Below, one piece after another: positions 45,203 through 63,512 of a stretch of DNA of 64,000 bases. The notes under the pieces are model-generated. The model saw nothing but the letters and a program-made list of their open reading frames with translations. It was not told the DNA's origin and ran no database searches. The stretch comes from Escherichia phage vB_EcoP_SU7. The stretch lies in the sequence record NC_070980.1; one strand, written 5' to 3'. Both the position numbers and the translations under genes were made by a program. Numbering within the stretch: the first letter of the stretch is position 1; the number at the start of each line of letters is the position of its first letter.

Positions 45203-45850
45203 TTAACTCTCCAAAGTTTTCTTCAGGGCTGCCCACGAGATTGGGTAGAGTTTAGCCATCTCTTCGTCTAGAGATTGGGCAAACACTCGAACTTCATATT
45301 GAGCGTGAGATGAGAGTCGCTGACGACACAACTCAAACCAGCCATACAAAGAACCAGTCCAGTACCAAGTAGTTATCATACCTTGAGGCAAAACAAATCT
45401 AGCCTGTTCCGGAGCAATAAATTTAATCAATTCATCATAACTAGCAAGAGATGCTTCATACGCAGAGTTAAACAAAGCCAAAGCTTTTGCCTCCTCTTCC
45501 CCTTCAAGAAGCGCTCCAGAACCAGAGTGTAAATCATCTGGACGAGAGAAAATTTCTTTAGGTATGAAAATATCCACTGCTCCGTCTTTGTATCTACGAC
45601 TCATCTCATTCCAAGAGAATCCAACTTGATGTTTTTGTAGCTGTCGTGCGATTGCTATCGGGGCTTCACACCGGAAGCTTGCTTGTGGGTGACGAAAAGG
45701 GCTTACATGGCGTTCTCGAGCTAAGAAGTTAATAAGCCGAGTATCATTTTCTTTCAGCTCCTCCCTTTCTACTCCCATAGTTACACGAGCGGCATTTACC
45801 ACAGTAAGGTCTGATCCGAAGTTATCAATTAGTGAAGCTTTGATTGTCAT
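45203..45850 (-). CDS. thyX: Flavin-dependent thymidylate synthase (ThyX-like)
   Basis: ThyX-like ...FRHPQASFRCEAPIAIARQLQKHQVGFSWNEMSRRY; the usual RHR triad appears as KHQ here, but the alignment is by eye. Confidence 0.7.
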   Translation of the reverse strand: MTIKASLIDNFGSDLTVVNAARVTMGVEREELKENDTRLINFLARERHVSPFRHPQASFRCEAPIAIARQLQKHQVGFSWNEMSRRYKDGAVDIFIPKEIFSRPDDLHSGSGALLEGEEEAKALALFNSAYEASLASYDELIKFIAPEQARFVLPQGMITTWYWTGSLYGWFELCRQRLSSHAQYEVRVFAQSLDEEMAKLYPISWAALKKTLES

Positions 45851-46316
45851 TTATATAAATCTCCTTGACTTTATTATATTCCCTAGAGGCCTCTTCTACG
45901 GTTGAGAAGAGTCCTATATGCTTAGATTTAAATACAGCCCGATAAGCAATAGAACCACTTTTCCTTTTATGAACAGTTACTCCAATTACTCCAGTGGATA
46001 AGTTATTACTCTGTGCTACCCTATTAAGACTGTTTCCTGCTTTAGTAGTCCCTCTAAGATTCTCTCTTTTGTTGTTCAACCTGTTGCGGTCCAAGTGGTC
46101 TACCTCTTCAGGAAGCGAACCAGTGTCCCACCAGTAAGCAAGACGGTGAGCGTAATACTTAACACCTTTATAGATGATTCTCAAATACCCATTGGTATTT
46201 ACAGAACCAGCTATAGATCCTTTGTGTCCTTTTCCATAAGTTTTAACCCATCGGAAATCTCCAGTCAAAGGGTCGTAATCAAGAGCTTCTTTTATTGATA
46301 GGTCAATGTCATTCAT
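45825..46316 (-). CDS. HNH-AP2 homing endonuclease
   Basis: HNH_3 motif YAHRLAYWW...VDHLDRNRLNNKRENLR plus AP2-like C-terminal domain; overlaps the thyX start. Confidence 0.7.
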   Translation of the reverse strand: MNDIDLSIKEALDYDPLTGDFRWVKTYGKGHKGSIAGSVNTNGYLRIIYKGVKYYAHRLAYWWDTGSLPEEVDHLDRNRLNNKRENLRGTTKAGNSLNRVAQSNNLSTGVIGVTVHKRKSGSIAYRAVFKSKHIGLFSTVEEASREYNKVKEIYINDNQSFTN

Positions 46317-46331
46317 CCGTGAACTTCCTTA

Positions 46332-46607
46332 TTACTTTTTGTTCAGAGCTGTATCCAAAAAGGCTTTCAGGTTTGCTTCAGTTTGCATACCGGACAAGCT
46401 GTAATGAGCACCACTGTTCTTATCAGGGATGACAAAGGCTGGGATACTGCGAACACCATATTCAATGGCTCGCTCTCGACCATCACCTTCGGTGATATTT
46501 ACTTCTTCAACTTCTACGTTGTAATCATCTACAACCTTCTTAAACACAGGAGCCATAGCTGCACAAGGTGCACATGAATTACTATAAAACTTAATCACTT
46601 TACTCAT
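46332..46607 (-). CDS. Thioredoxin/glutaredoxin-fold protein
   Basis: ATG 46607; active-site SCAPC (CxxC) near the N-terminus, about 91 aa. Confidence 0.6.
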   Translation of the reverse strand: MSKVIKFYSNSCAPCAAMAPVFKKVVDDYNVEVEEVNITEGDGRERAIEYGVRSIPAFVIPDKNSGAHYSLSGMQTEANLKAFLDTALNKK

Positions 46608-46797
46608 TCTATTCCTTGTTAATAAACAGGTTGATATGACGCTGGGTAGCAGGAACAACAATAAAAGATTTATACTGACCTTTTGCTAAGTCATGAGCAA
46701 TCTTCTTTGTCTGACCAAGACCCATCACACAGCCACTAACGATAATGGCATGTGCTTGTAATTCTTCAGGTAGGTTTAGTTTCACTCTTTGGGTTCC

Positions 46798-46983
46798 TTA
46801 TAGCATACAAAGAATAATAACAAGAGGTAGTGTTATAGCAAAATGTACCAGAACAACACTACCTAGCTTGATAGCTTTAACATCCTCTTCTGCTGGGTTT
46901 TCTTTAATTGCTAAATTTCGAGCTTTATATATAACAGTACCAACTATTAACGACCACACGGCCCACACAATCAGTGAAATCAT
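46798..46983 (-). CDS. Small membrane protein (paralogue A)
   Basis: Two hydrophobic helices flanking ...KENPAEEDVKAIKLGS...; paralogous to 46993-47214. Confidence 0.4.
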   Translation of the reverse strand: MISLIVWAVWSLIVGTVIYKARNLAIKENPAEEDVKAIKLGSVVLVHFAITLPLVIILCML

Positions 46984-46992
46984 ATCAAACCC

Positions 46993-47214
46993 TTATGCAG
47001 TCAACAGGTGGAGAAGGAAAGGAATCACAATAGTACAAACTACCAGAGCGATGCTGCCATGTTTAATAGCTTTAGCTTCACTTGGATTTTCTTTAAGCAT
47101 CTGCTTCTGGGCCAGATAGACGATACCACCAATAATGATTGCCCAAAAAGACCATACGATTGCTGAAAACATATTCACATCCTTATAAAGAAGTTCGCCC
47201 CACCTCTTAAACAA
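46993..47214 (-). CDS. Small membrane protein (paralogue B)
   Basis: Same architecture (...KENPSEAKAIKHGS...). Confidence 0.4.
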   Translation of the reverse strand: MFKRWGELLYKDVNMFSAIVWSFWAIIIGGIVYLAQKQMLKENPSEAKAIKHGSIALVVCTIVIPFLLHLLTA

Positions 47215-47235
47215 AGAGACAGGGCGGAGGTTTGA

Positions 47236-47811
47236 TTAGTAAGACACATCACCACTAGAGTGGGACATGTTGCTCTTGACGAAGTAACAGAACTTGCCAA
47301 GACCTTCATTAATTTCTTGAAGCATACTCTGGTCCACTGGATAGGTGCACAAGTCTGAATCAAACTCATCCATCTTCTCAATGATACACATAAGAGTCAT
47401 GCACATGTCGGAAAGCATACCGTCCATGTCAAGATCAGCGTTACCTTCTCGGAACCAAGCATGACCTAAATAATTACTAGCAGTAGCATCCACCTTAACA
47501 CAATGAAAGCGCATACGCTCTGCTATTCGGTCGCCTGCCTCACGAGCATAATCTTCTAGTTCATCGAACATACCATGAACACCTTGGAAACCAGCTCCAG
47601 AGACGTTCCAGTGGTAGTTCTTTGCTTTGATGTGTAGAAGTTCAAGGTTAGCTTGCACACCACACAAGATGTGTTCTAAGCTGTTACCGCTAATCAGTTT
47701 ATTCATTCCCTCAAGACGAGAGATAGAAGAGTCAGTAGTAGAGAATGGGTTGCTAGAACCCACTCGTGTTAGTTCTGGTAAGTCGAAGACATTATTATGC
47801 ATTAGGTGCAT
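47236..47811 (-). CDS. Dps-like ferritin (DNA-protection/ferroxidase family)
   Basis: HWNVSGAGFQGVHGMFDELEDYAREAGDRIAERM matches the Dps ferroxidase-centre pattern. Confidence 0.65.
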   Translation of the reverse strand: MHLMHNNVFDLPELTRVGSSNPFSTTDSSISRLEGMNKLISGNSLEHILCGVQANLELLHIKAKNYHWNVSGAGFQGVHGMFDELEDYAREAGDRIAERMRFHCVKVDATASNYLGHAWFREGNADLDMDGMLSDMCMTLMCIIEKMDEFDSDLCTYPVDQSMLQEINEGLGKFCYFVKSNMSHSSGDVSY

Positions 47812-48142
47812 CCCCTTCTAAGTTAGTTGAATTAGCTACATTACGAGCAATGTTATCCATGACCTGCTGTGTAATAACAATGCAATTCTGAGGGTCTACT
47901 GATTTAGAACGCCCCATCTCAGGGTCATAGACTTTGACTCGCTTGGCTGTTGAGCCAGTAACTTGCAACACTTTGAGAAGATAGCCTTGGTTTCCAATAG
48001 ACCATGCAACAACATCACGATTCTTGATATAACGACCAAGCATGTCACGATGATAGAACTGCTGCATAACTTTAGCTTTGCTAATCTCTTCAGATGGCGG
48101 GGCCACTTTACTCAAATCTAACATAACTCTCTCCTGTTTCAT
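47795..48142 (-). CDS. Hypothetical protein
   Basis: 115-aa ORF. Confidence 0.4.
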   Translation of the reverse strand: MKQERVMLDLSKVAPPSEEISKAKVMQQFYHRDMLGRYIKNRDVVAWSIGNQGYLLKVLQVTGSTAKRVKVYDPEMGRSKSVDPQNCIVITQQVMDNIARNVANSTNLEGDAPNA

Positions 48143-48194
48143 ACAATATTCTTATACTGTATATACATTTGAGAGTTATCATATCTACTACCAA

Positions 48195-48401
48195 CTAGTA
48201 ATAAACCTTGCTGGATATGAATCCAGCACTGTTATGGATATTTTCAATCCAACGATGAATCTCCACCTTTTCAGCGAGACCTAAAGCTTTTGTAGCTTTC
48301 TTAGCAAGACGAGCTTCTTGTCGAGTGTCGAATAATTTAAGACAATCACCACCAAGGTCTTTGTTAGCCCATTTAACGCGAACTGCCCATAATTTAGCCA
48401 T
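48195..48401 (-). CDS. Hypothetical small protein (paralogue)
   Basis: W.VRVKW...TRQEAR..KK pattern shared with 48401-48613. Confidence 0.35.
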   Translation of the reverse strand: MAKLWAVRVKWANKDLGGDCLKLFDTRQEARLAKKATKALGLAEKVEIHRWIENIHNSAGFISSKVYY

Positions 48402-53866: not shown

Positions 53867-54105
53867 AGACTTGTTACTCCCTTATCTGCTTGTGCAATTG
53901 CGATGATACGCTCAGCACATTCCATTGAATATTTATCACCTCGTTTGAGGAAGGTGATGATTGCAGAGAACTGATTACCAATCATTCTCTTATTTGTGAT
54001 ACCGAACTCTTCACAGAGTTGGTTGATAGCTTTACGAGAGCCTACAATAAGAGGCTCTTTTTCTTCGGTCATTCCACGGCTGATCAAATCTTCGATAGAC
54101 AACAT
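53863..54105 (-). CDS. Hypothetical small protein
   Basis: 80-aa ORF coupled to neighbours. Confidence 0.3.
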   Translation of the reverse strand: MLSIEDLISRGMTEEKEPLIVGSRKAINQLCEEFGITNKRMIGNQFSAIITFLKRGDKYSMECAERIIAIAQADKGVTSL

Positions 54106-54131
54106 TACAAATTCCTTTTTGTTTAATTTAA

Positions 54132-55367
54132 TTACAGAGTTACTGCTACTTCGCTACCTTCAACATTGACAGACTCTAACTTGCGAGGGTTATGAATCTG
54201 GACTGGATTGACCGGAACGTTCCAACCACTGCGGTAGAAGTTACGACCATCACAGAACAGGATGACATTGGCAGACATTGCATTCGGTTGCAGGTTGTTG
54301 TGGACATGACGGATATTTGCAATCCAGTAGCCACGAGACAAAGTGTAGCCAGTAGGTGCATTACGAATAGTTTGAGTATTCATCTGACCTTCCAGTTGCA
54401 TTTCTTCAGGAACCACATCAACTGAATCAATCGGCTGTGCTACTTGTCCTTCCAGTGCAAAGTTTTCATCATCAGCACTTTCACTGTCAGCAACCAATTC
54501 ACCGTCCCCGTCTTCAATCGGAGTCTGGTAAACCACTTTATACTGAGGGGTATAGAGAGGGTTCTGAGCTTTAACAAACTCAAGAATGTTGTGACGATAA
54601 GTATCCAGAGTCGTACCAGTCAGTCCCGGTGCTGTGTTAACTTCCAGTACCCATGCTTCTTGACCTTTGGTGATAATATCAACTGCACCGAAATCCAGAC
54701 CCATTGATTCAACAGCTTTCACCGCATTGATCAGAGAGGCATCATTCGGAGCATCTGTGAAGGAGCTTGAGTAAACCCAGCCAGTGTGGTGATTACGAAT
54801 ATCTTCACGATAGTTAGGGTCTTCGCGATAACCATTGCGACGAATCTTCTTCTGAACATAGGTGATTACACCTTTGAACACATGGACACGCCATTCACGA
54901 CGTGGGCCTTGAATACCTTTAGTGTACAGCTCAGCCTGATCAACTGTAGTGTTAGGCTCTACAACAACAATACCTGAACCAGAGTGACCAGTCAGCTCGT
55001 GACGCTCATACACAATGTTGCCAGCGTTTGACCACTCCTGAGCAGTCTCTTGAACATCTGTGTATTCCACAGTTTTAACACCTGCTTGGTCCATCACACT
55101 GAAAGCACGACGTTTGTTCGCTGCCATATGTAAGGCTGCGGTACGGTTAAGGACGGTTGCAGAACCAAAGAATGATTCAGGATAGCGACGGTTCCCGTAG
55201 TTAACAACCACATCATCTTCACGAGAACGCCAGCGGCTATTCTCTGAAAGAAGCCCCATCACGTTAGCATTGATGCGTTCATCACGGATAGTATCACTGA
55301 TAGCAGATACCAGAGCGTTAACAGAATCAGACGGGCCATACGGAAGAACACGGATACGAGTAGTCAT
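54132..55367 (-). CDS. ATP-grasp ligase (RimK/glutathione-synthetase-like)
   Basis: ATP-grasp pattern: ...HSGSGIVVV..., ...WRVHVF..., ...EAWVLEVNTAPGL... Confidence 0.6.
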   Translation of the reverse strand: MTTRIRVLPYGPSDSVNALVSAISDTIRDERINANVMGLLSENSRWRSREDDVVVNYGNRRYPESFFGSATVLNRTAALHMAANKRRAFSVMDQAGVKTVEYTDVQETAQEWSNAGNIVYERHELTGHSGSGIVVVEPNTTVDQAELYTKGIQGPRREWRVHVFKGVITYVQKKIRRNGYREDPNYREDIRNHHTGWVYSSSFTDAPNDASLINAVKAVESMGLDFGAVDIITKGQEAWVLEVNTAPGLTGTTLDTYRHNILEFVKAQNPLYTPQYKVVYQTPIEDGDGELVADSESADDENFALEGQVAQPIDSVDVVPEEMQLEGQMNTQTIRNAPTGYTLSRGYWIANIRHVHNNLQPNAMSANVILFCDGRNFYRSGWNVPVNPVQIHNPRKLESVNVEGSEVAVTL

Positions 55368-55369
55368 TT

Positions 55370-55600
55370 TTAGATACCTTTTAGTTTAAGAATTTCGTTA
55401 CGACAGGATTGAATTTTAGCTTCGATTGCCCAATACTCAGCGAACATTTCGTCTTCTTGGGCATCGCTTGGAGAGTCGATTAAGTTAAAAGCAAACGGAT
55501 ACAGCTTTCGCTGCTCCGTTACCAGTTGTTGAAGTCGGAGTTGTTGATACTCCAGCATTGTCAGGTGAGGCTTAGCTCCCTTGCTTGACATGAGGCTCAA
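55370..55600 (-). CDS. Hypothetical small protein
   Basis: 76-aa ORF. Confidence 0.3.
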   Translation of the reverse strand: MSLMSSKGAKPHLTMLEYQQLRLQQLVTEQRKLYPFAFNLIDSPSDAQEDEMFAEYWAIEAKIQSCRNEILKLKGI

Positions 55601-55805
55601 CTTTAATCCCCTTCATTTTAACATAGTCAGCCAACACGTTGTTGATAACGGTTGGAAAAGGGATTTCTACTGGAGAATCAACCAGCTTCCCAATACCTTC
55701 TTGCATCCACTTCTGAATTGCTCGGAGGTTATCACATCCTGTGCTTGTCATCGGAATACGGCGGGTAGTTACCACGTTATCCAACATCAGTTTACGAACT
55801 TCCAT
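55572..55805 (-). CDS. Hypothetical small protein
   Basis: 77-aa ORF. Confidence 0.3.
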   Translation of the reverse strand: MEVRKLMLDNVVTTRRIPMTSTGCDNLRAIQKWMQEGIGKLVDSPVEIPFPTVINNVLADYVKMKGIKVEPHVKQGS

Positions 55806-55816
55806 AACTATACCTC

Positions 55817-57850
55817 TTAGTGTTTACCTTTACAGTAATCTGAATTACAGATCACCCTGTTTTCTTTGTTCAGTGAGCAAGTTTCTGCATCACGCCACGG
55901 AATTTGTTTATAACAGACTGCACAAAACCCAATTGAAGTCCAGAGGGCTTTTGTGAACTCGGCTGTTCGTTGTCCATCATAGCTGACAACTGTTTTTCGG
56001 AGAGAGGTTGACTTTTTTGGAAATGTCTCCGCTTTCTCAGCGGGTACCTCCTTTGGGGAATTCTTTGGACCATAAACAGAGATGGCATAAGTATCACCAC
56101 CACGTTTTTCCAAATACGAATTAGGAACATCTGCAAGTGTAATATCCCCTGAACGTTTTGCTGAGCTAACCATTACGATCATACGGCTAAGCATACGTTC
56201 ATCAACACGAACAGCTACTTCAGGACGACGTGGGTTGGTTGTGTCTACTGCTTTAGTCCAAATATAACCCTCAGATAGAGTAACATTCTTTACTTTATCT
56301 TTGATTTCTTTGGAGCAGATATAACAAACATCTTCACCACGAAGTTTACTCATTTCGTTGTCAAACTCGAAATCAGTCTTGACTTCACCACAGACAGCAC
56401 ATACGCCCAAAGGCACATCTTCTTCATCTTCAGAGATTTTAGATAACGCTTCGAAGCATTCTGGATGCCAGTATGCTTGATAAGCAAACACAGCCTTACG
56501 AGCATCTTTCCAGTCAATGTGCTTATCACAACCACCACAATCACCATGAGAGTGAGATTCCCAGAACTTACGAGTGACTTCTACACCATTTTTAGTGATG
56601 AAGGAGTCCTCTGCATCAAAAGGGATGTCATCATCAAAATCAGCAGTAGTGCTTTGAGGCTCCTTATCTGTAGCATCAACAAACAGCCCTGAAGTTAGTA
56701 CGAGGCGAATCATACTGTCCACTTCGGAGATACAAGCAATCGTCCCGCGATATACTACCTTTGGGTTTTCAAGAGCCTTAAGATATTCATCTTTGGCTAC
56801 GTTGTGAACATCCCCTTCGACATACTCTTGGGCTTTATCGTCGTAGATGTAACCAATCATCTTACCACGATCTGTGTTGTTATAAGCATGGAACTCGTGA
56901 GGAATAATATCCACACGACCATCACGACGATAAGGAAGACCACGATCGGCAGCCAGTTTGTTCTGGTCTTCAATCGCTTTACGACGACGAATGTCTCCGC
57001 TTGTCACGCCGGGCTTGTCGTCTTTGTTTCCGTAAATGTCGCTTGTGCTGCTGCTTGATTTGTTTGTCTGTTGGTTCTGATATAGAGAGGAGTTCGAGTA
57101 ATAGCCGCCCCAGCGACTCGTTATCGTAAAAACCGGAAGCTTGTGCTCCACCTCTTGAACCAGAGTCATACGACTGTTAGACACATCAAAGATATACTCA
57201 GTTCCCACTTTACATTCGAAGTGGTCATTGATACGGTTCTTGTGGGATTTAGAACGCTCTAAAATCCACATAAGCATAGCTTCTTCAGAAGCCCCAAACC
57301 AATCTAAACCACAACGGGCTAGGTGGAAAGGACGCTCATCATTACGGATAATGTGAAGCGTGTTGTCTTTAGCATCATGCCAAATCAAAGTGAATGCACC
57401 ATCCAGTTTTTGGATAGTCTCTGCTGCTCCAATGGTATTAATTGAGTGGCAGATGTTTTCACTATCAACTTCGAAACGCTTACTGTCAGGAAGGAGATCT
57501 TGATCTAACAGGGTTCCATTATGAACCAGAGTAATATCCCCGTGAGTAAATGGGTGAGCATTTCGAGCATTGACAGCCCCACGAGTGGCATGTCGGCTGT
57601 GACCAACAATCCACGAAGGAGGAACTACGTAGTTCGTAAGCCCTTTGGTAATATTTGTATATTCTGTCTGGAGCATAAAAGCATAAGAAGGAAGAGCTTC
57701 TTTATAAGAGAAGACTTGCTTTTCACCTTTACGCTGACCAAACACACCAGTTGAGTGCTGTCCACGGAAAACACCAGCATACAGAAGTTGGTTGAAAATA
57801 TCCAAATCTGTTGAGGTCATGTTGCCGCCAGCTAATACGATACCACAAAT
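55817..57850 (-). CDS. Class II (Ntn-type) glutamine amidotransferase with C-terminal Cys-rich domain; predicted AUU start
   Basis: In-frame upstream of the track ATG (57820) the sequence reads TAG AAA ATT TGT GGT ATC = stop-K-I-C-G-I-V, i.e. the conserved (M)CGIV nucleophile; the only start placing Cys at position 2 is ATT 57848-57850, with AGGTGG SD 8 nt upstream. Downstream RGQHSTGV, GHSRHATRG, NAHPF, HNG motifs. Confidence 0.6.
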   Translation of the reverse strand: MCGIVLAGGNMTSTDLDIFNQLLYAGVFRGQHSTGVFGQRKGEKQVFSYKEALPSYAFMLQTEYTNITKGLTNYVVPPSWIVGHSRHATRGAVNARNAHPFTHGDITLVHNGTLLDQDLLPDSKRFEVDSENICHSINTIGAAETIQKLDGAFTLIWHDAKDNTLHIIRNDERPFHLARCGLDWFGASEEAMLMWILERSKSHKNRINDHFECKVGTEYIFDVSNSRMTLVQEVEHKLPVFTITSRWGGYYSNSSLYQNQQTNKSSSSTSDIYGNKDDKPGVTSGDIRRRKAIEDQNKLAADRGLPYRRDGRVDIIPHEFHAYNNTDRGKMIGYIYDDKAQEYVEGDVHNVAKDEYLKALENPKVVYRGTIACISEVDSMIRLVLTSGLFVDATDKEPQSTTADFDDDIPFDAEDSFITKNGVEVTRKFWESHSHGDCGGCDKHIDWKDARKAVFAYQAYWHPECFEALSKISEDEEDVPLGVCAVCGEVKTDFEFDNEMSKLRGEDVCYICSKEIKDKVKNVTLSEGYIWTKAVDTTNPRRPEVAVRVDERMLSRMIVMVSSAKRSGDITLADVPNSYLEKRGGDTYAISVYGPKNSPKEVPAEKAETFPKKSTSLRKTVVSYDGQRTAEFTKALWTSIGFCAVCYKQIPWRDAETCSLNKENRVICNSDYCKGKH

Positions 57851-57927
57851 TTTCTAATCCACCTGAAGGGTAAACCCTTTCATCTAATTAACCTTTAAAT
57901 GCGCCCTTTATCAGAGCGCCCATTGTG

Positions 57928-59028
57928 TTACAGCAGTCGTTCTAATTGCATTTCCAGATGGTCTGGAATGTAATCAGTGATGTTATTATCACTGCTACCT
58001 GATTCACGCATCAGAGCAAACATGTGACGAATTTCACGAACCGTTGCGATTCGAGTGCTTTCAATCTGAGGGGTGTAGTAGGTCATGATCTCTTCATAGA
58101 CAGTGTTGGCATTACCGCGCACATATCCCAAGAAACCATAGAAGTCATTCATATCACGTAAGTTGATAAGGACTTCACCATCAGGGCCAGTCTGTTGCAC
58201 ACGAACACGACCAACCAAAGTTACAGATTGCTCACGACAGAACAGAATATCACGAGCAAGACGATACCCTTCAGTGAGATCACTGTCTCTTGGAGTATAG
58301 TCTAGGGGTAGATGTTGAATCATAGGAGCGAAGCGCAGCTCATTCAACTTCTCAACATAAGCTTCATTGTCTAAATCTGCATATTCAACAGCCAGTTTCT
58401 TGAGAACCAAGAAGCGGTTGACCAGATTCAGAAGTTGGCTCTTTTTCCACTTCGGCTCTGAGATACGGAACTCAACAGAACCAAATTGAGATAGAGGCAA
58501 AAGATTAAGGGAGGTATATTTATCCCAGCTATTAACAAGAGAGTGGAAGAAAGCTTCCCCGTCTCGGTTGAACGCTGACGAAGCATTCATAACTTGTGCT
58601 TGAACGACAGCAAAAGCTGGACAGAAGTTGCTACGATAGCGATGGTATCCAGAACATTTGAACATCATCTTTTCATAGAACGTCCATCCAAGAATAACTT
58701 TCTTAAGGATATTACTATCAGCGTCACGCATATCCATATGAACGTGAGTGGAACAGCGCCAAGTTCCCTCGGCTCCAGAATCCTGTACTGCTTCACTCAG
58801 ATTGTTAATAGCACGAAGTAATTCTTCACCGTTGTAAGGTCGTGCACATACTAATTCACAACCATCACGAAGAGAGCCATCTTCAGTACAAACCCACATA
58901 TCAGCGTCAATGTTAGTTGTACCTTCGACTTCTAACTCAATACCAACACCACACTGAAAAGCAATACTTGGATGCGGTTCAGATAAGCGAGGGTTACGGT
59001 ATCCAAAAACTTGTGCTACGGTTGTCAT
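57928..59028 (-). CDS. Amidoligase-like (glutamine-synthetase-like carboxylate-amine ligase) protein
   Basis: GVGIELEVEG and CSTHVHMD motifs resembling phage amidoligase families. Confidence 0.45.
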   Translation of the reverse strand: MTTVAQVFGYRNPRLSEPHPSIAFQCGVGIELEVEGTTNIDADMWVCTEDGSLRDGCELVCARPYNGEELLRAINNLSEAVQDSGAEGTWRCSTHVHMDMRDADSNILKKVILGWTFYEKMMFKCSGYHRYRSNFCPAFAVVQAQVMNASSAFNRDGEAFFHSLVNSWDKYTSLNLLPLSQFGSVEFRISEPKWKKSQLLNLVNRFLVLKKLAVEYADLDNEAYVEKLNELRFAPMIQHLPLDYTPRDSDLTEGYRLARDILFCREQSVTLVGRVRVQQTGPDGEVLINLRDMNDFYGFLGYVRGNANTVYEEIMTYYTPQIESTRIATVREIRHMFALMRESGSSDNNITDYIPDHLEMQLERLL

Positions 59029-59651
59029 AATGATTCCACCAACTCTACATTATATGATGACAGGTCTGAAGAAATATGCTTGAACTTCTCCAGAAGGTTT
59101 AAAGATTGACGACCATTGTCGCCATAACCAGCTTCAAGAAGCACGTTTCCAACGTAAGCTCCTTTGTAATAAACTTTTCCATCGACAGGATTGATATAGA
59201 TGAAACGAGTAACCAACCCTTCAAACTCTGGATTAAACAGGTTGTACACCAAATCACCCGGAATCGAACGTCCGAGAGAAGGTGGAGTACCACGAAGTTT
59301 ATTCCCCATCAATCCTTTAGCTCGCTGACGAACAGGGTTGATATGGGTCCAGCTCACCATGTTATTACCATGCTGAAGGTATCCTACATCTGGAGACTCC
59401 AGAATGAGGCTGTGATCAAACACTGGGATATTACTAACAATCTGACGCTCAAACTGACCTTCGGAGTTTTTAGTCCAGCGTTCCGCCTCAAACACTAAAG
59501 ACATTTCAGCGTCGTGTGAGTAGTCGTCGATATCAAAGTTACCTTGCTGACGAACATCAAGCACATATAGAGGGAGGTTTTTACCATCAGGTGATCGCTG
59601 AGCAATCCATGTTCCACAATAATAGTGTTGAAAATCTCTTAACAAGCTCAC
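59025..59651 (-). CDS. Hypothetical protein (within the ligase cluster)
   Basis: 208-aa ORF coupled to the flanking ligase genes. Confidence 0.4.
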   Translation of the reverse strand: MSLLRDFQHYYCGTWIAQRSPDGKNLPLYVLDVRQQGNFDIDDYSHDAEMSLVFEAERWTKNSEGQFERQIVSNIPVFDHSLILESPDVGYLQHGNNMVSWTHINPVRQRAKGLMGNKLRGTPPSLGRSIPGDLVYNLFNPEFEGLVTRFIYINPVDGKVYYKGAYVGNVLLEAGYGDNGRQSLNLLEKFKHISSDLSSYNVELVESL

Positions 59652-59660
59652 AATATCACC

Positions 59661-60470
59661 TTATACAATCTGGAGTTTAGAGGAGAATTTATCCGCTTCT
59701 TTAACATCGTTACTGTTGATGATGTTGTGAAGCTTTTCAATTGGAAGGCGAGAGTGAAGTGACATCAATACTTCCATATCACAGCCTTGAACAACCTTAT
59801 CAACTTGCTCATAAACAAACTTGCGGGTTGACTTCTCGCCAATCCAGAAGTTAGAAAGAGAACGATATTCAATACCGTAATCTTTGTAGCGAATGGCAGA
59901 AGCCTTTCCGTATAACTCTTTACGACGAGTATCTTTATCCATGATCACAGCTGGCAAGGACAGGAAGTAATCACACAACACACCTAACATCATTTGAGTC
60001 TGACGACTAATTTCCAGCGTACCAGTGACGCCAAGGTGAACATGACCACCAGCAGTACGCAGACCTTTGTCTGTCGCTACTGGAGATGGGTTTTTCTGAC
60101 CAGTGAAGGCGTTGAAATCAGGAGTACAACCAAATACAAAGGCTGACGGATGGAAAGATTCCATCTCTTCTGAAGTGAACACATGAGAGCTAATCCCAAG
60201 TGCTGCCTCCATGCCACGTTCATTGAGAACTTTGTTAGTCAGATCAATACCACGCTGAATGTTATCATTAAACGCTTCAAACCCTTTCTGTGGGTTAATA
60301 TCGAACTCGGCCAGAACGTTGTCTTCTTGAAGACGAACATCAGGGGCCAGATCAATTTTGTTGTCTTTAGAGCAGCCCAGCTTACCAGCCACAGAGGTGA
60401 TAATACCAGAAGCAGTACGAACAAACATTTCCGGATCCGACCCTATTAAGAATTTACGTTTAGTAGTCAT
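59661..60470 (-). CDS. Second amidoligase-like / carboxylate-amine ligase protein
   Basis: IGSDPEMFV (acidic ligase-type N-terminal motif) and AGGHVHLGV motif; divergent paralogue-like. Confidence 0.4.
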   Translation of the reverse strand: MTTKRKFLIGSDPEMFVRTASGIITSVAGKLGCSKDNKIDLAPDVRLQEDNVLAEFDINPQKGFEAFNDNIQRGIDLTNKVLNERGMEAALGISSHVFTSEEMESFHPSAFVFGCTPDFNAFTGQKNPSPVATDKGLRTAGGHVHLGVTGTLEISRQTQMMLGVLCDYFLSLPAVIMDKDTRRKELYGKASAIRYKDYGIEYRSLSNFWIGEKSTRKFVYEQVDKVVQGCDMEVLMSLHSRLPIEKLHNIINSNDVKEADKFSSKLQIV

Positions 60471-60937
60471 GCTTTAGTCCAACCTTTATGAGATAGATAG
60501 TTTTTAAATCTGCCACTGTGCACAGCGCCCATGTGGCCTTGATGTAAGTCGTTGCTTCTACAGAAGTCTTTAAGATTGTATATTGTTACAACCTCGCCAT
60601 CTGGAGATCTAAACTTCCAAAATCTAGCATTCCCTTTCACAGCGTTTTCTTCACTGGTCAGAAGTTGGAAATTACTTGGGTGGTTATTAAGTTTATCGCC
60701 ATCGATGTGATCAACAGTCATACCATCCGGAATAGGCCCAATAAACAATTCATACATAAGTCTATGTAATAAAAAGTTCCTTGTTATCTTTTCAGGAGCC
60801 TGAACTGTTGTAAACTTAAGATAACCATCTTTATCAGGAAACAGTTTCCTCTGTTTCCCTGTTCTTGCATGGAATATACTACCGTCTTCGAACACCAAGA
60901 AGGTAGCAACTCCGACTACTAACTCCCTAAATTCCAT
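60467..60937 (-). CDS. HNH endonuclease (inserted within the ligase cluster)
   Basis: VDHIDGDKLNNHPSNFQLLTSEENAVKGN HNH_3 motif. Confidence 0.65.
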   Translation of the reverse strand: MEFRELVVGVATFLVFEDGSIFHARTGKQRKLFPDKDGYLKFTTVQAPEKITRNFLLHRLMYELFIGPIPDGMTVDHIDGDKLNNHPSNFQLLTSEENAVKGNARFWKFRSPDGEVVTIYNLKDFCRSNDLHQGHMGAVHSGRFKNYLSHKGWTKA

Positions 60938-60961
60938 AGAGAACCAATAAGGAAAGCACGC

Positions 60962-61912
60962 TTAGTCATTGTAATACTCCACGAGTTCATCAAAAAGGGA
61001 AACAACACGAGCACCAGCTTCTTCTGGTGTCATTGAGGAAGGTACTGCTTGCATCAGACGTTCGATAAAACTTCGAACAGTAATTCTGTCCATACGCTGA
61101 TCTAATACTTCTCGCTTGTGACCTGCACAAGTTGACCAGAGACGTAACCACTCACTCATACTCTCATAATGGTCAGGGTCTTGGTCACGACGACGTGCCA
61201 TACGACGGAGAACTCCATCATTATGGTTTCGTACATAACCATCTCGGTTGTCATCAACACCGAATACATTCTGAACCCATACGTTTTCAGAAAATTCATC
61301 AGTGGTGCAAATTAATGGCAGAAATGCAATTGCACTCATGTCGCCATCAAAATAAGTCGCTGCTGACTCATCGGTTGAGTCTACGTCATTACTATAACAC
61401 CAGCGACCAAAGAAGTTACGACTTAAACCAGCTAAGCGTAGAGCTAAACCGATTCGTTGTCGCTTAAGCAACTCTTCCTTGTCTTGTACGCCTTCCTGAA
61501 GGAACTCCATTCCATTAAAATCACCATCCAAATAGCTACGGATGGTCATTAGTCCAGTAAACACCTTGTCTGCTGGATGGTTTCGAAGGTTCACGGCAAT
61601 GGAGTTCACCGAAGTGACAGAGAACATATCTTTATAGCAAGACATTGAGTTAAAAATATCTGTTGCTTCAACTAAAGCTCTTTCGATATCTTTAGCTGGC
61701 ACGCCATAAAAATTGTGAGGCCAGAAGTTAATAACTTCAATTTCTGAAGTTCTATCACGAAGGCTTGTTCGGTTACGACTTTCACCGTTAATGTCTGTAA
61801 CAGAATACATGTGCATACAGTTAAAAGTACCAAAGCAAGCTCTTCCTTTGAACACTGACTCACCGAAATCCTCTGCCGGTGTTACCGGAGCAATCGATGC
61901 GGAGATTGACAT
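60962..61912 (-). CDS. Hypothetical protein
   Basis: 316-aa ORF, no recognised motif. Confidence 0.4.
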   Translation of the reverse strand: MSISASIAPVTPAEDFGESVFKGRACFGTFNCMHMYSVTDINGESRNRTSLRDRTSEIEVINFWPHNFYGVPAKDIERALVEATDIFNSMSCYKDMFSVTSVNSIAVNLRNHPADKVFTGLMTIRSYLDGDFNGMEFLQEGVQDKEELLKRQRIGLALRLAGLSRNFFGRWCYSNDVDSTDESAATYFDGDMSAIAFLPLICTTDEFSENVWVQNVFGVDDNRDGYVRNHNDGVLRRMARRRDQDPDHYESMSEWLRLWSTCAGHKREVLDQRMDRITVRSFIERLMQAVPSSMTPEEAGARVVSLFDELVEYYND

Positions 61913-61920
61913 ATTCGCCT

Positions 61921-63138
61921 CTATTTATTAAAGAATAGTTTTTCCATAATGGTTTCCCACTCTTCTGAGGGGAGGGTTGAGAACCCGTTTCCGTGAAGCC
62001 TGTTTGTCATGCAACTAATAATATTGTACATGTTGTAGCTTCGGGTGGATTCTGTTCCATTGTTCCAGTTGTAACCGAAAACAATTTTATCGAAGGAGGT
62101 TTTATCCGTAGTTACTTCTCGGATAAACTCAACCAAGAGCGATTTCTCTGTGATGACCGCACGTTCACCATCTGGCAGATTGCAATACTGAGGAAGAAGG
62201 ATTGGTAAGAACATCGAATTGTTCACTCGACAATCACGAACACCTTCACTGCGATAGATTAGGCTTGAGAAGTCTTCATCACGCAGGTGTCCTTCACCTT
62301 CAGTGTATTCACACTGTCGCCACTTGGTCTGGCGAGGCTCAATCATTGTACTACCAACGCCTACTGTATACAGAGACGCTTGGAAAATACATGAATCGTA
62401 ATCATTCCCTGTTAAAGCAACACGTTCGTTACCGAACACATCCACTGAAGAGTTGATCAGTCGGCTGAATGCAAGAGAGGCTAGTGGAGACCAACCTTTC
62501 TTATACATCTTGTTCAGCATTTCATACACAGCAGATTTTTCATCATCTGTATAGAATGTACGATTCAGCATCAGATAGAACAGAGCGCGATCAGCAGGAC
62601 AACCATCAGTACAAACACCCATGAATCCTACTTCATGCCATACCAGACATGAGTCAGAATCTTTATCCATGAATGCTTCAAAGGCTTCCATTACAGCCCT
62701 GTCAGTAACATCAGGACGGTTGTTTTCTTCTGCCCATGTTTCTACATGAGAAGGGGGACGAGGGTCTCCATTCTCCACCCCTTCGCGGAAATATTGAGTG
62801 GTAATAGGCTTTTTATCACCATAACGTTTTACACCATAAGCGGGAAGGTGTGTACCAGAGTTCCAGATGTACTTGATTTCGGACATAGGCATCATGTTTT
62901 CGAGAACATTCTCTTCAGCAGTGCCTTGACGAACCATCATACCCTCACTCCACACCTTAATACGGATATTCCAGCCAAAATTGCTGTCATATGCGTTGTA
63001 GTAGTCAGGATAACCATCTTCATCTTCATCATAATCACCACCCTGATAGTAACCTGCTTTCAGGAAACCATAACAAGGAGGCCAGACGGTTACAACATCA
63101 TCTGATTCTTTCCAGCTTTGAAGTGTTACAGGGAACAT
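61921..63138 (-). CDS. Hypothetical protein
   Basis: 405-aa ORF with acidic Tyr/Asp-rich N-terminal region; first gene of the long minus-strand run ending in the ligase cluster. Confidence 0.4.
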   Translation of the reverse strand: MFPVTLQSWKESDDVVTVWPPCYGFLKAGYYQGGDYDEDEDGYPDYYNAYDSNFGWNIRIKVWSEGMMVRQGTAEENVLENMMPMSEIKYIWNSGTHLPAYGVKRYGDKKPITTQYFREGVENGDPRPPSHVETWAEENNRPDVTDRAVMEAFEAFMDKDSDSCLVWHEVGFMGVCTDGCPADRALFYLMLNRTFYTDDEKSAVYEMLNKMYKKGWSPLASLAFSRLINSSVDVFGNERVALTGNDYDSCIFQASLYTVGVGSTMIEPRQTKWRQCEYTEGEGHLRDEDFSSLIYRSEGVRDCRVNNSMFLPILLPQYCNLPDGERAVITEKSLLVEFIREVTTDKTSFDKIVFGYNWNNGTESTRSYNMYNIISCMTNRLHGNGFSTLPSEEWETIMEKLFFNK

Positions 63139-63149
63139 CTTTTACCTCT

Positions 63150-63512
63150 TTACTCTGCTACCAAAAGGCTCAGAGATTTGCGAATGTAGTCAATACTACG
63201 GAAGTTTCGATAGTTCTCTTGGAAGCGCATTTTTTCAAACTCTGCTTCCTGAAGCTCTACCTCTGCTGCTTTATATCCTGATAAAGCTAAACTTACCACA
63301 TCCTGAGGTAAGGTATTACGACGGCGAATAAGATATTTATTCGCTTTTAGTTTACCTTGTGCACGAGCCATTTTGGCCTTTGCCGCCTTGATACCATGAG
63401 AAATCCAAAGCAGTTGCTGTTTCAGATCTTCCTCATCCATACCACCTAAATCATTTGCTACTTTATGAAGCGTAGACAGGTTCACATGGCCTTTAATGGG
63501 GCGTAGGTTCAT
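63150..63512 (-). CDS. Hypothetical protein
   Basis: 120-aa helical basic ORF. Confidence 0.4.
   Translation of the reverse strand: MNLRPIKGHVNLSTLHKVANDLGGMDEEDLKQQLLWISHGIKAAKAKMARAQGKLKANKYLIRRRNTLPQDVVSLALSGYKAAEVELQEAEFEKMRFQENYRNFRSIDYIRKSLSLLVAE

Follow-up and report, generated by a model that had tools for sequence, protein, structure and literature searches.

A diverged Dps-type mini-ferritin, probably serving iron and peroxide removal, encoded behind a middle promoter of the phiEco32-like coliphage SU7

A protein of the Dps family has been on record in phiEco32-like phages since the GenBank entry of phiEco32 itself (EU330206), in which gp67 (ABY52868) is described as a ‘DNA-binding protein, member of the Dps family’. 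The study of phage SU10 subsequently placed Dps, thioredoxin and gp68 among the few middle genes common to all five C3 phages then known, and its Dps orthologue was seen by mass spectrometry with 35.8% coverage (PMC4281155). The phiEco32 promoter P68 is a gp36/gp79-dependent middle promoter that has served for transcription in vitro and to obtain the cryo-EM structure of an open complex (PMC12276001), and motifs of this type are recognised by the phage sigma factor gp36 (PMC4281155, PMC8948821, PMC12276001). For Lactobacillus phages and gut ‘Gratiaviridae’ phages, which belong to other groups and infect other hosts, a protective role of Dps against oxidative and iron stress has been suggested (PMC6669764, PMC8008677). 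A literature search for experimental work on any phage Dps found none.

The window analysed here is a 64,000-nucleotide stretch of Escherichia phage vB_EcoP_SU7 (NC_070980.1), a phiEco32-like (Kuravirus-type, Gordonclarkvirinae) coliphage. An earlier note, made from the letters of this window alone, had proposed that one of its open reading frames encodes a Dps-like ferritin with an intact ferroxidase centre. The identification is correct and is also already known, given the EU330206 label and the listing of the gene as core in later papers; the gp67 orthologue was thus annotated long ago. The names phiEco32 gp67, SU10 CDS67, Bas87_0063 and PHROG 3636 all refer to the same gene as SU7 Dps. At the protein level SU7 Dps is the same as its counterparts in phages Bas87 and HC-25922 (100% identity) and shares 84% identity with phiEco32 gp67, which occupies the syntenic position with conserved flanks, while phage PAS59 is 93% identical across the Dps region. 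The features of the locus, in window coordinates, are as follows.

48209..48228, minus strand: terminator-like hairpin at the end of the upstream (early-side) unit; the P68-type promoter follows shortly after it.
48160..48170, minus strand: AAATGTATATA, equal to the phiEco32 middle promoter P68 element, with one mismatch to the tAATGTATAtA consensus.
47795..48124, minus strand: gp68 homologue, 109 aa, basic; its stop overlaps the Dps start (phrog_10984, E=2e-62).
47236..47802, minus strand: Dps-family mini-ferritin gene, phiEco32 gp67 orthologue, 188 aa from the second ATG.
47668..47802, minus strand: N-terminal extension of Dps, about 45 residues, specific by alignment to the phiEco32-like and intermediate lineages.
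47515..47613, minus strand: codons of the ferroxidase motif HWNV...H...D...D...ER, with H64, W65, H76, D80, D91 and E95 (188-aa numbering).
47196..47226, minus strand: hairpin with a 13-bp stem, directly after the Dps stop codon.
46993..47172, minus strand: small two-segment membrane protein, paralogue b (phrog_9296).
46798..46983, minus strand: small two-segment membrane protein, paralogue a (phrog_9296).
46609..46785: further small ORF (phrog_19504).
46332..46607, minus strand: thioredoxin with a CAPC active site, phiEco32 gp65 orthologue (Pfam Thioredoxin, E=3e-13).
45825..46316, minus strand: HNH homing-type endonuclease between ThyX and the thioredoxin region, overlapping the ThyX start.

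The mechanically defined ORF spans 47236..47811 on the minus strand and would encode 191 aa. Its first ATG, however, abuts the GGGG of a GAAGGGG ribosome-binding sequence, whereas the second ATG, at 47802, lies 9 nt past GAAGGGG and shares bases with the preceding gene's stop codon (ATGCATAA). Database homologues are 186–191 aa long and begin MH(N/K)N at the position of the second ATG. Because the spacing of the ribosome-binding sequence, the ATGCATAA overlap and the homologue starts agree, the annotated position 47802 is the most plausible true start, yielding a protein of 188 aa.

The Dps ferroxidase-centre signature reported for this ORF is present as HWNVSGAGFQGVHGMFDELEDYAREAGDRIAER, at residues 67–99 of the 191-aa frame. 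The pattern as originally written does not match literally, one of its spacers being three residues short, but a corrected version with nine wildcards instead of six before ‘D.IAER’ does. Careful alignment to E. coli Dps (from MG1655) and to some 25 homologues showed that all six residues of the centre are kept. H64, W65, H76, D80, D91 and E95 correspond to H51, W52, H63, D67, D78 and E82 of the E. coli protein with identical spacing; across 25 homologues, the most distant with 25% identity, five of the six never vary and D80 is conserved at 90% or above.

Profile searches returned the same family. The Pfam Ferritin model (PF00210) scored 32.9 bits against a cut-off of 24.5 (E=7e-8), with an alignment covering residues 59–102 only, and PHROG 3636 (phrog_3636) matched residues 40–184 with E=1e-52. 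PF00210 is also precomputed on 38 of 38 homologues. A sequence search of the PDB gave matches that are almost all Dps, with about 50 Dps or Dps-like entries at E<1 and M. smegmatis Dps2 as the best (E ~1e-9). Scores to the NCBIfam Dps equivalog models were, without exception, far under their cut-offs; for NF006975, which describes the E. coli-type DNA-binding Dps, the value was 34.7 bits against a cut-off of 114. The C-terminal half of the phage protein is divergent.

An AlphaFold (AF2) single-chain model, built on 25 homologues, recovered the Dps-type four-helix bundle, as did Foldseek comparison of that model. The mean pLDDT is 82, with a core at or above 90, and the helices span residues 42–66 (A), 72–99 (B), 108–113 (BC), 126–146 (C) and 155–178 (D). 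The short BC helix sits in the long crossover loop, and the model is without the fifth E helix of ferritins. Every one of the 50 top-ranking Foldseek hits in the PDB is a Dps or Dps-like protein, and the best of them superpose with a target-normalised TM of about 0.8 and an rmsd of 1.2–2.3 Å over 134–143 columns. We also considered a classical ferritin or bacterioferritin and rejected it, since the top sequence and structure matches are Dps and the model has no fifth helix. The two outcomes that the earlier note had named as refuting its reading, a predicted structure lacking the ferritin-like four-helix bundle and a loss of ferroxidase ligands on alignment, were both looked for, and neither was seen.

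Judged by profiles, ligands and predicted fold together, the ORF is a genuine Dps-type mini-ferritin, for which iron oxidation is predicted from family and ligands. It shares with cellular Dps proteins (M. smegmatis Dps2, 2z90; B. subtilis MrgA, 2chp; B. anthracis Dlp-2, 1jig; E. coli Dps, 1dps) the four-helix bundle, the BC helix and the complete inter-subunit set of ferroxidase ligands at identical spacing. Unlike them, it lacks a lysine-rich tail and carries an acidic 45-residue N-terminal extension and six cysteines, both atypical for Dps, as well as an extra C-terminal tail ending in Y. Its identity to these cellular proteins is only 19–26%, and it scores under every NCBIfam Dps equivalog cut-off.

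To place the protein among phages, 50,697 phage records were searched by tblastn (E≤1e-5), and a homologue was detectable in 132 of them. Ninety-six of the 132, each a phage of the phiEco32 group, match over nearly the full length with identities of 80% or more. The statement that Dps is uncommon in phage genomes therefore holds overall but misleads here, because essentially every phiEco32-like phage carries the gene. A search of 1.84 billion representatives found only 12 clusters at E≤1e-10 and 554 at E≤1e-3. This scarcity of close clusters, together with the low equivalog scores, indicates from sequence comparison that the protein belongs to a small, diverged phage clade within the Dps family. 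Recent capture of the host dps was rejected: E. coli Dps shares 19% overall identity with the phage protein and a single local match of 41 residues, and the top-scoring Dps entries of the PDB come from actinobacteria and Firmicutes.

The short-form Dps proteins of Grimontviridae (7-11, Privateer) and Lahexavirus are homologous at 30–43% identity. As in SU7, their genes have replication and nucleotide-metabolism functions around them and a gp68-like gene in the vicinity; they differ in having short basic N-termini in place of the N-terminal extension. A viral structure search (BFVD) recovered SU10 gp67 and also Dps-like proteins from crAss-like phages, Bacillus phage G and Lactobacillus phages, the last of which resemble SU7 Dps in fold but are only 18–22% identical to it in structural alignment.

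The gene is under strong purifying selection. Relative to phiEco32, the core has a pN/pS of 0.086, its synonymous sites being close to saturated (pS 0.69), whereas the ratio for the N-terminal extension is 0.34. A decaying or non-functional gene was rejected on the core ratio and on the presence of the gene in essentially all relatives. A strictly lytic lineage thus keeps a diverged mini-ferritin under strong selection, and does so behind its best-studied middle promoter.

The 35 bases around AAATGTATATA are identical to those of phiEco32, and, as read from the sequence, Dps is the second gene of the unit behind this P68-type promoter. Together, AAATGTATATA and the terminator-like hairpin upstream of it mark the early/middle boundary of the genome. 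The hairpin after the Dps stop codon has a predicted RNA folding energy of −18.6 kcal/mol (z = −2.6); compared with phiEco32, the stem is identical and the loop differs. This element may act as an attenuator, a terminator or an RNA-stabilising structure, and may set off gp68–Dps as a separately regulated or stabilised segment of the transcript.

The genes beside Dps are as the earlier note had described them, namely a thioredoxin-fold protein and two paralogous small proteins, which are 45% identical to each other (E=4e-16) and have two strongly hydrophobic segments each. As in phiEco32, Dps lies between gp68 and the small membrane protein and thioredoxin genes, with the same P68 sequence upstream and the hairpin downstream. 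The differences are minor: the interval between Dps and thioredoxin holds one ORF in phiEco32 (gp66) and three in the SU7 lineage, including the tandem membrane-protein pair. The SU7 lineage differs further in the HNH endonuclease by ThyX, which is missing at the same place in phiEco32 and present in Bas87, and which can thus be regarded as a mobile insertion that varies among relatives.

We propose that the gp67 orthologue forms a mini-ferritin cage that lowers Fe2+ and peroxide during phage DNA replication, a reading to which we assign a probability of about 0.65. On family knowledge, the protein would assemble into the usual hollow shell of 12 subunits, and Fe2+ would be bound at the dimer interface by H64 and H76 from one chain and by D91 and E95 from the chain related to it by the two-fold axis. 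The bound Fe2+ would be oxidised with H2O2 or O2 and the Fe3+ deposited in the shell cavity. Dps would be made in the middle phase along with the replication and nucleotide-metabolism enzymes, which in this phage comprise primase/helicase, polymerase, dCTP deaminase, ThyX and thioredoxin. Lower levels of free Fe2+ and peroxide would in turn reduce the Fenton damage suffered by phage DNA during its replication and by redox-sensitive enzymes, and the neighbouring phage thioredoxin is a plausible companion in this role.

Gene context is consistent with such a function. In every lineage examined, Dps is found among replication and nucleotide genes, with dCTP deaminase or an anaerobic ribonucleotide reductase nearby and usually also ThyX, thioredoxin and PhoH. 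The closest cellular-type homologue that we found adjoins AhpC, an AhpD-like gene and a LysR-family regulator, a peroxide-defence setting.

The annotation carried by most records implies a different function, in which the cage, like that of E. coli Dps, attaches to DNA, compacting the host nucleoid or coating and protecting phage DNA, with iron chemistry being secondary. The 7-11, Privateer and LAh_8 short forms do have basic N-termini (3–5 K/R in the first 25 residues) that recall the E. coli Dps tail, and the co-expressed gp68 is basic and of a fold class that is often nucleic-acid-binding. The SU7 protein itself, however, has a pI of 4.8, and its first 45 residues hold 3 K/R against 5 D/E; a search of this N-terminus for a lysine cluster or lysine-rich tail found none. 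The extension is acidic and lysine-poor, with a conserved S-x-x-R-L-E/D-x-M helix, and is modelled at a pLDDT of 39–59 with a helix predicted at residues 26–38. Since the protein is acidic and its N-terminus has no lysine-rich tail, the ‘DNA-binding protein’ label is not supported by sequence for the phiEco32-like lineage, where the phage Dps alone is probably not a DNA binder. The label derives from the family name and from no test. DNA binding is absent from several cellular Dps proteins, and the strict conservation of the ferroxidase ligands argues that iron chemistry is the selected activity. We therefore regard a primary role in DNA binding as unlikely.

The orthologues carry a second label that deserves correction. 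Many GenBank records of phiEco32-like genomes name this protein an ‘integrase’, for which searches against Pfam, PHROG and NCBIfam profiles give no support. The term is a mis-annotation propagated through numerous phiEco32-like genomes and could wrongly flag these lytic phages as temperate.

The same nucleotide-metabolism surroundings could also be taken to mean that the cage buffers or supplies iron for enzymes of dNTP synthesis, either the host class Ia reductase or, in relatives, phage NrdD/NrdG. Dps sits in a cluster with ThyX, dCTP deaminase, thioredoxin and PhoH, relatives have anaerobic ribonucleotide reductase genes near Dps, and in 7-11, Privateer and LAh_8 the gene directly downstream of Dps encodes a small conserved protein, about 95 aa long, that carries an ATP-cone or NrdD-like annotation, at the following positions in the respective contigs.

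L003:3908-4207: ATP-cone/NrdD-like-annotated gene of 7-11.
L004:3898-4194: ATP-cone/NrdD-like-annotated gene of Privateer.
L005:3929-4201: ATP-cone/NrdD-like-annotated gene of LAh_8.

LAh_8 has anaerobic ribonucleotide reductase genes nearby, whereas phiEco32-like phages are without these and without the ATP-cone/NrdD-like gene. Indeed, phiEco32-like phages encode no ribonucleotide reductase, so that a tie to a reductase of the phage's own was rejected for this group. Dps proteins are mainly known as detoxifiers rather than iron donors, and the adjacency may only mirror shared timing in the middle phase. Iron supply to dNTP synthesis is accordingly, in our judgement, quite improbable as the principal role.

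The partner gene upstream of Dps bears on a further possibility. The gp68 homologue has a pI of 9.1, and profile searches with Pfam and NCBIfam gave no match for it. Its AF2 model (pLDDT 66) places a small barrel of five strands after an N-terminal helix, and its Foldseek matches are Tudor, KOW, PWWP and SH3 barrels, all weak (E>0.001). An SH3/Tudor/KOW-like small beta-barrel is thus predicted, at the level of fold class only. Among five phage lineages examined, four have a gp68-like gene directly upstream of Dps and overlapping it. Homologues directly upstream of Dps were found in Privateer, in LAh_8 and in two metagenomic phage contigs, while in phage 7-11 the gp68-like gene is four genes away from Dps. 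The gp68-like genes located, of about 90–110 aa, are listed below.

L004:3139-3423: gp68-like gene of Privateer.
L005:3178-3462: gp68-like gene of LAh_8.
L003:1894-2160: gp68-like gene of 7-11.
L008:3679-4011: a further gp68-like gene.

Between some lineages gp68 is better conserved than Dps: the metagenomic copies share 82% identity with SU7 gp68, against only 48% for Dps. A Dps-carrying contig fragment (L010) showed no gp68-like gene in its roughly 600 bases upstream. Basic, SH3-like and apparently translationally coupled to Dps, gp68 is a candidate partner of the mini-ferritin.

Dps might also be a component of the particle. In this reading the cage, or single subunits of it, would be packaged inside the prolate capsid or bound to it, and would function in head filling or else at, or ahead of, the entry of DNA. 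Privateer Dps was found by mass spectrometry in virions purified on CsCl step and equilibrium gradients, in work that verified ten predicted virion proteins (PMC7881722), and the Dps gene is core to the C3 prolate podophages. BFVD in addition holds Dps-like folds in long phage proteins: these lie inside proteins of 290–763 aa from uncultured tailed phages (A0A6J7XDU5, A0A6J7WPK9, A0A6J7WIS1 and others), some of which are named ‘prohead protease’. The predicted folds are hints that mini-ferritin domains may be delivered into phage heads; the long Dps-containing proteins that came out of the search of representatives showed no protease or head domain.

Against a place in the virion, the gene is part of the middle (replication) cluster downstream of P68 and stands outside the late structural operon. 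The SU10 sample in which Dps was detected had been PEG-precipitated only, and polymerase, thioredoxin and terminase were detected in it too, whereas the SU10 cryo-EM paper, in which mass spectrometry covered the major gel bands only, makes no mention of Dps. A large and possibly iron-loaded cage might, moreover, co-purify with particles. Taken together, these points make carriage of Dps by the virion very unlikely.

A more elaborate version treats gp68-like, Dps and thioredoxin as a module of C3 podophages, in which gp68 would tether the acidic Dps cage to DNA or capsid and so associate it with the virion or the packaged genome. The adjacency of gp68 and Dps in four of five lineages, the Dps in Privateer virions and the Dps-like folds in proteins named prohead protease make this compatible with the data, and, if true, a gp68-tethered Dps would be a phage counterpart of ferritin-loaded encapsulins; we nevertheless hold it to be a long shot beside the removal of iron and peroxide by the cage itself.

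Elsewhere in the window, the early region contains a cluster at about 54100..63200 on the minus strand that appears as an unusual peptide-ligase or modification gene set. In the annotation of the near-identical phage Bas87, its members are a RimK-like ligase, a GlmS-like amidotransferase, an amidoligase, a COOH-NH2 ligase and a gamma-glutamyl cyclotransferase.
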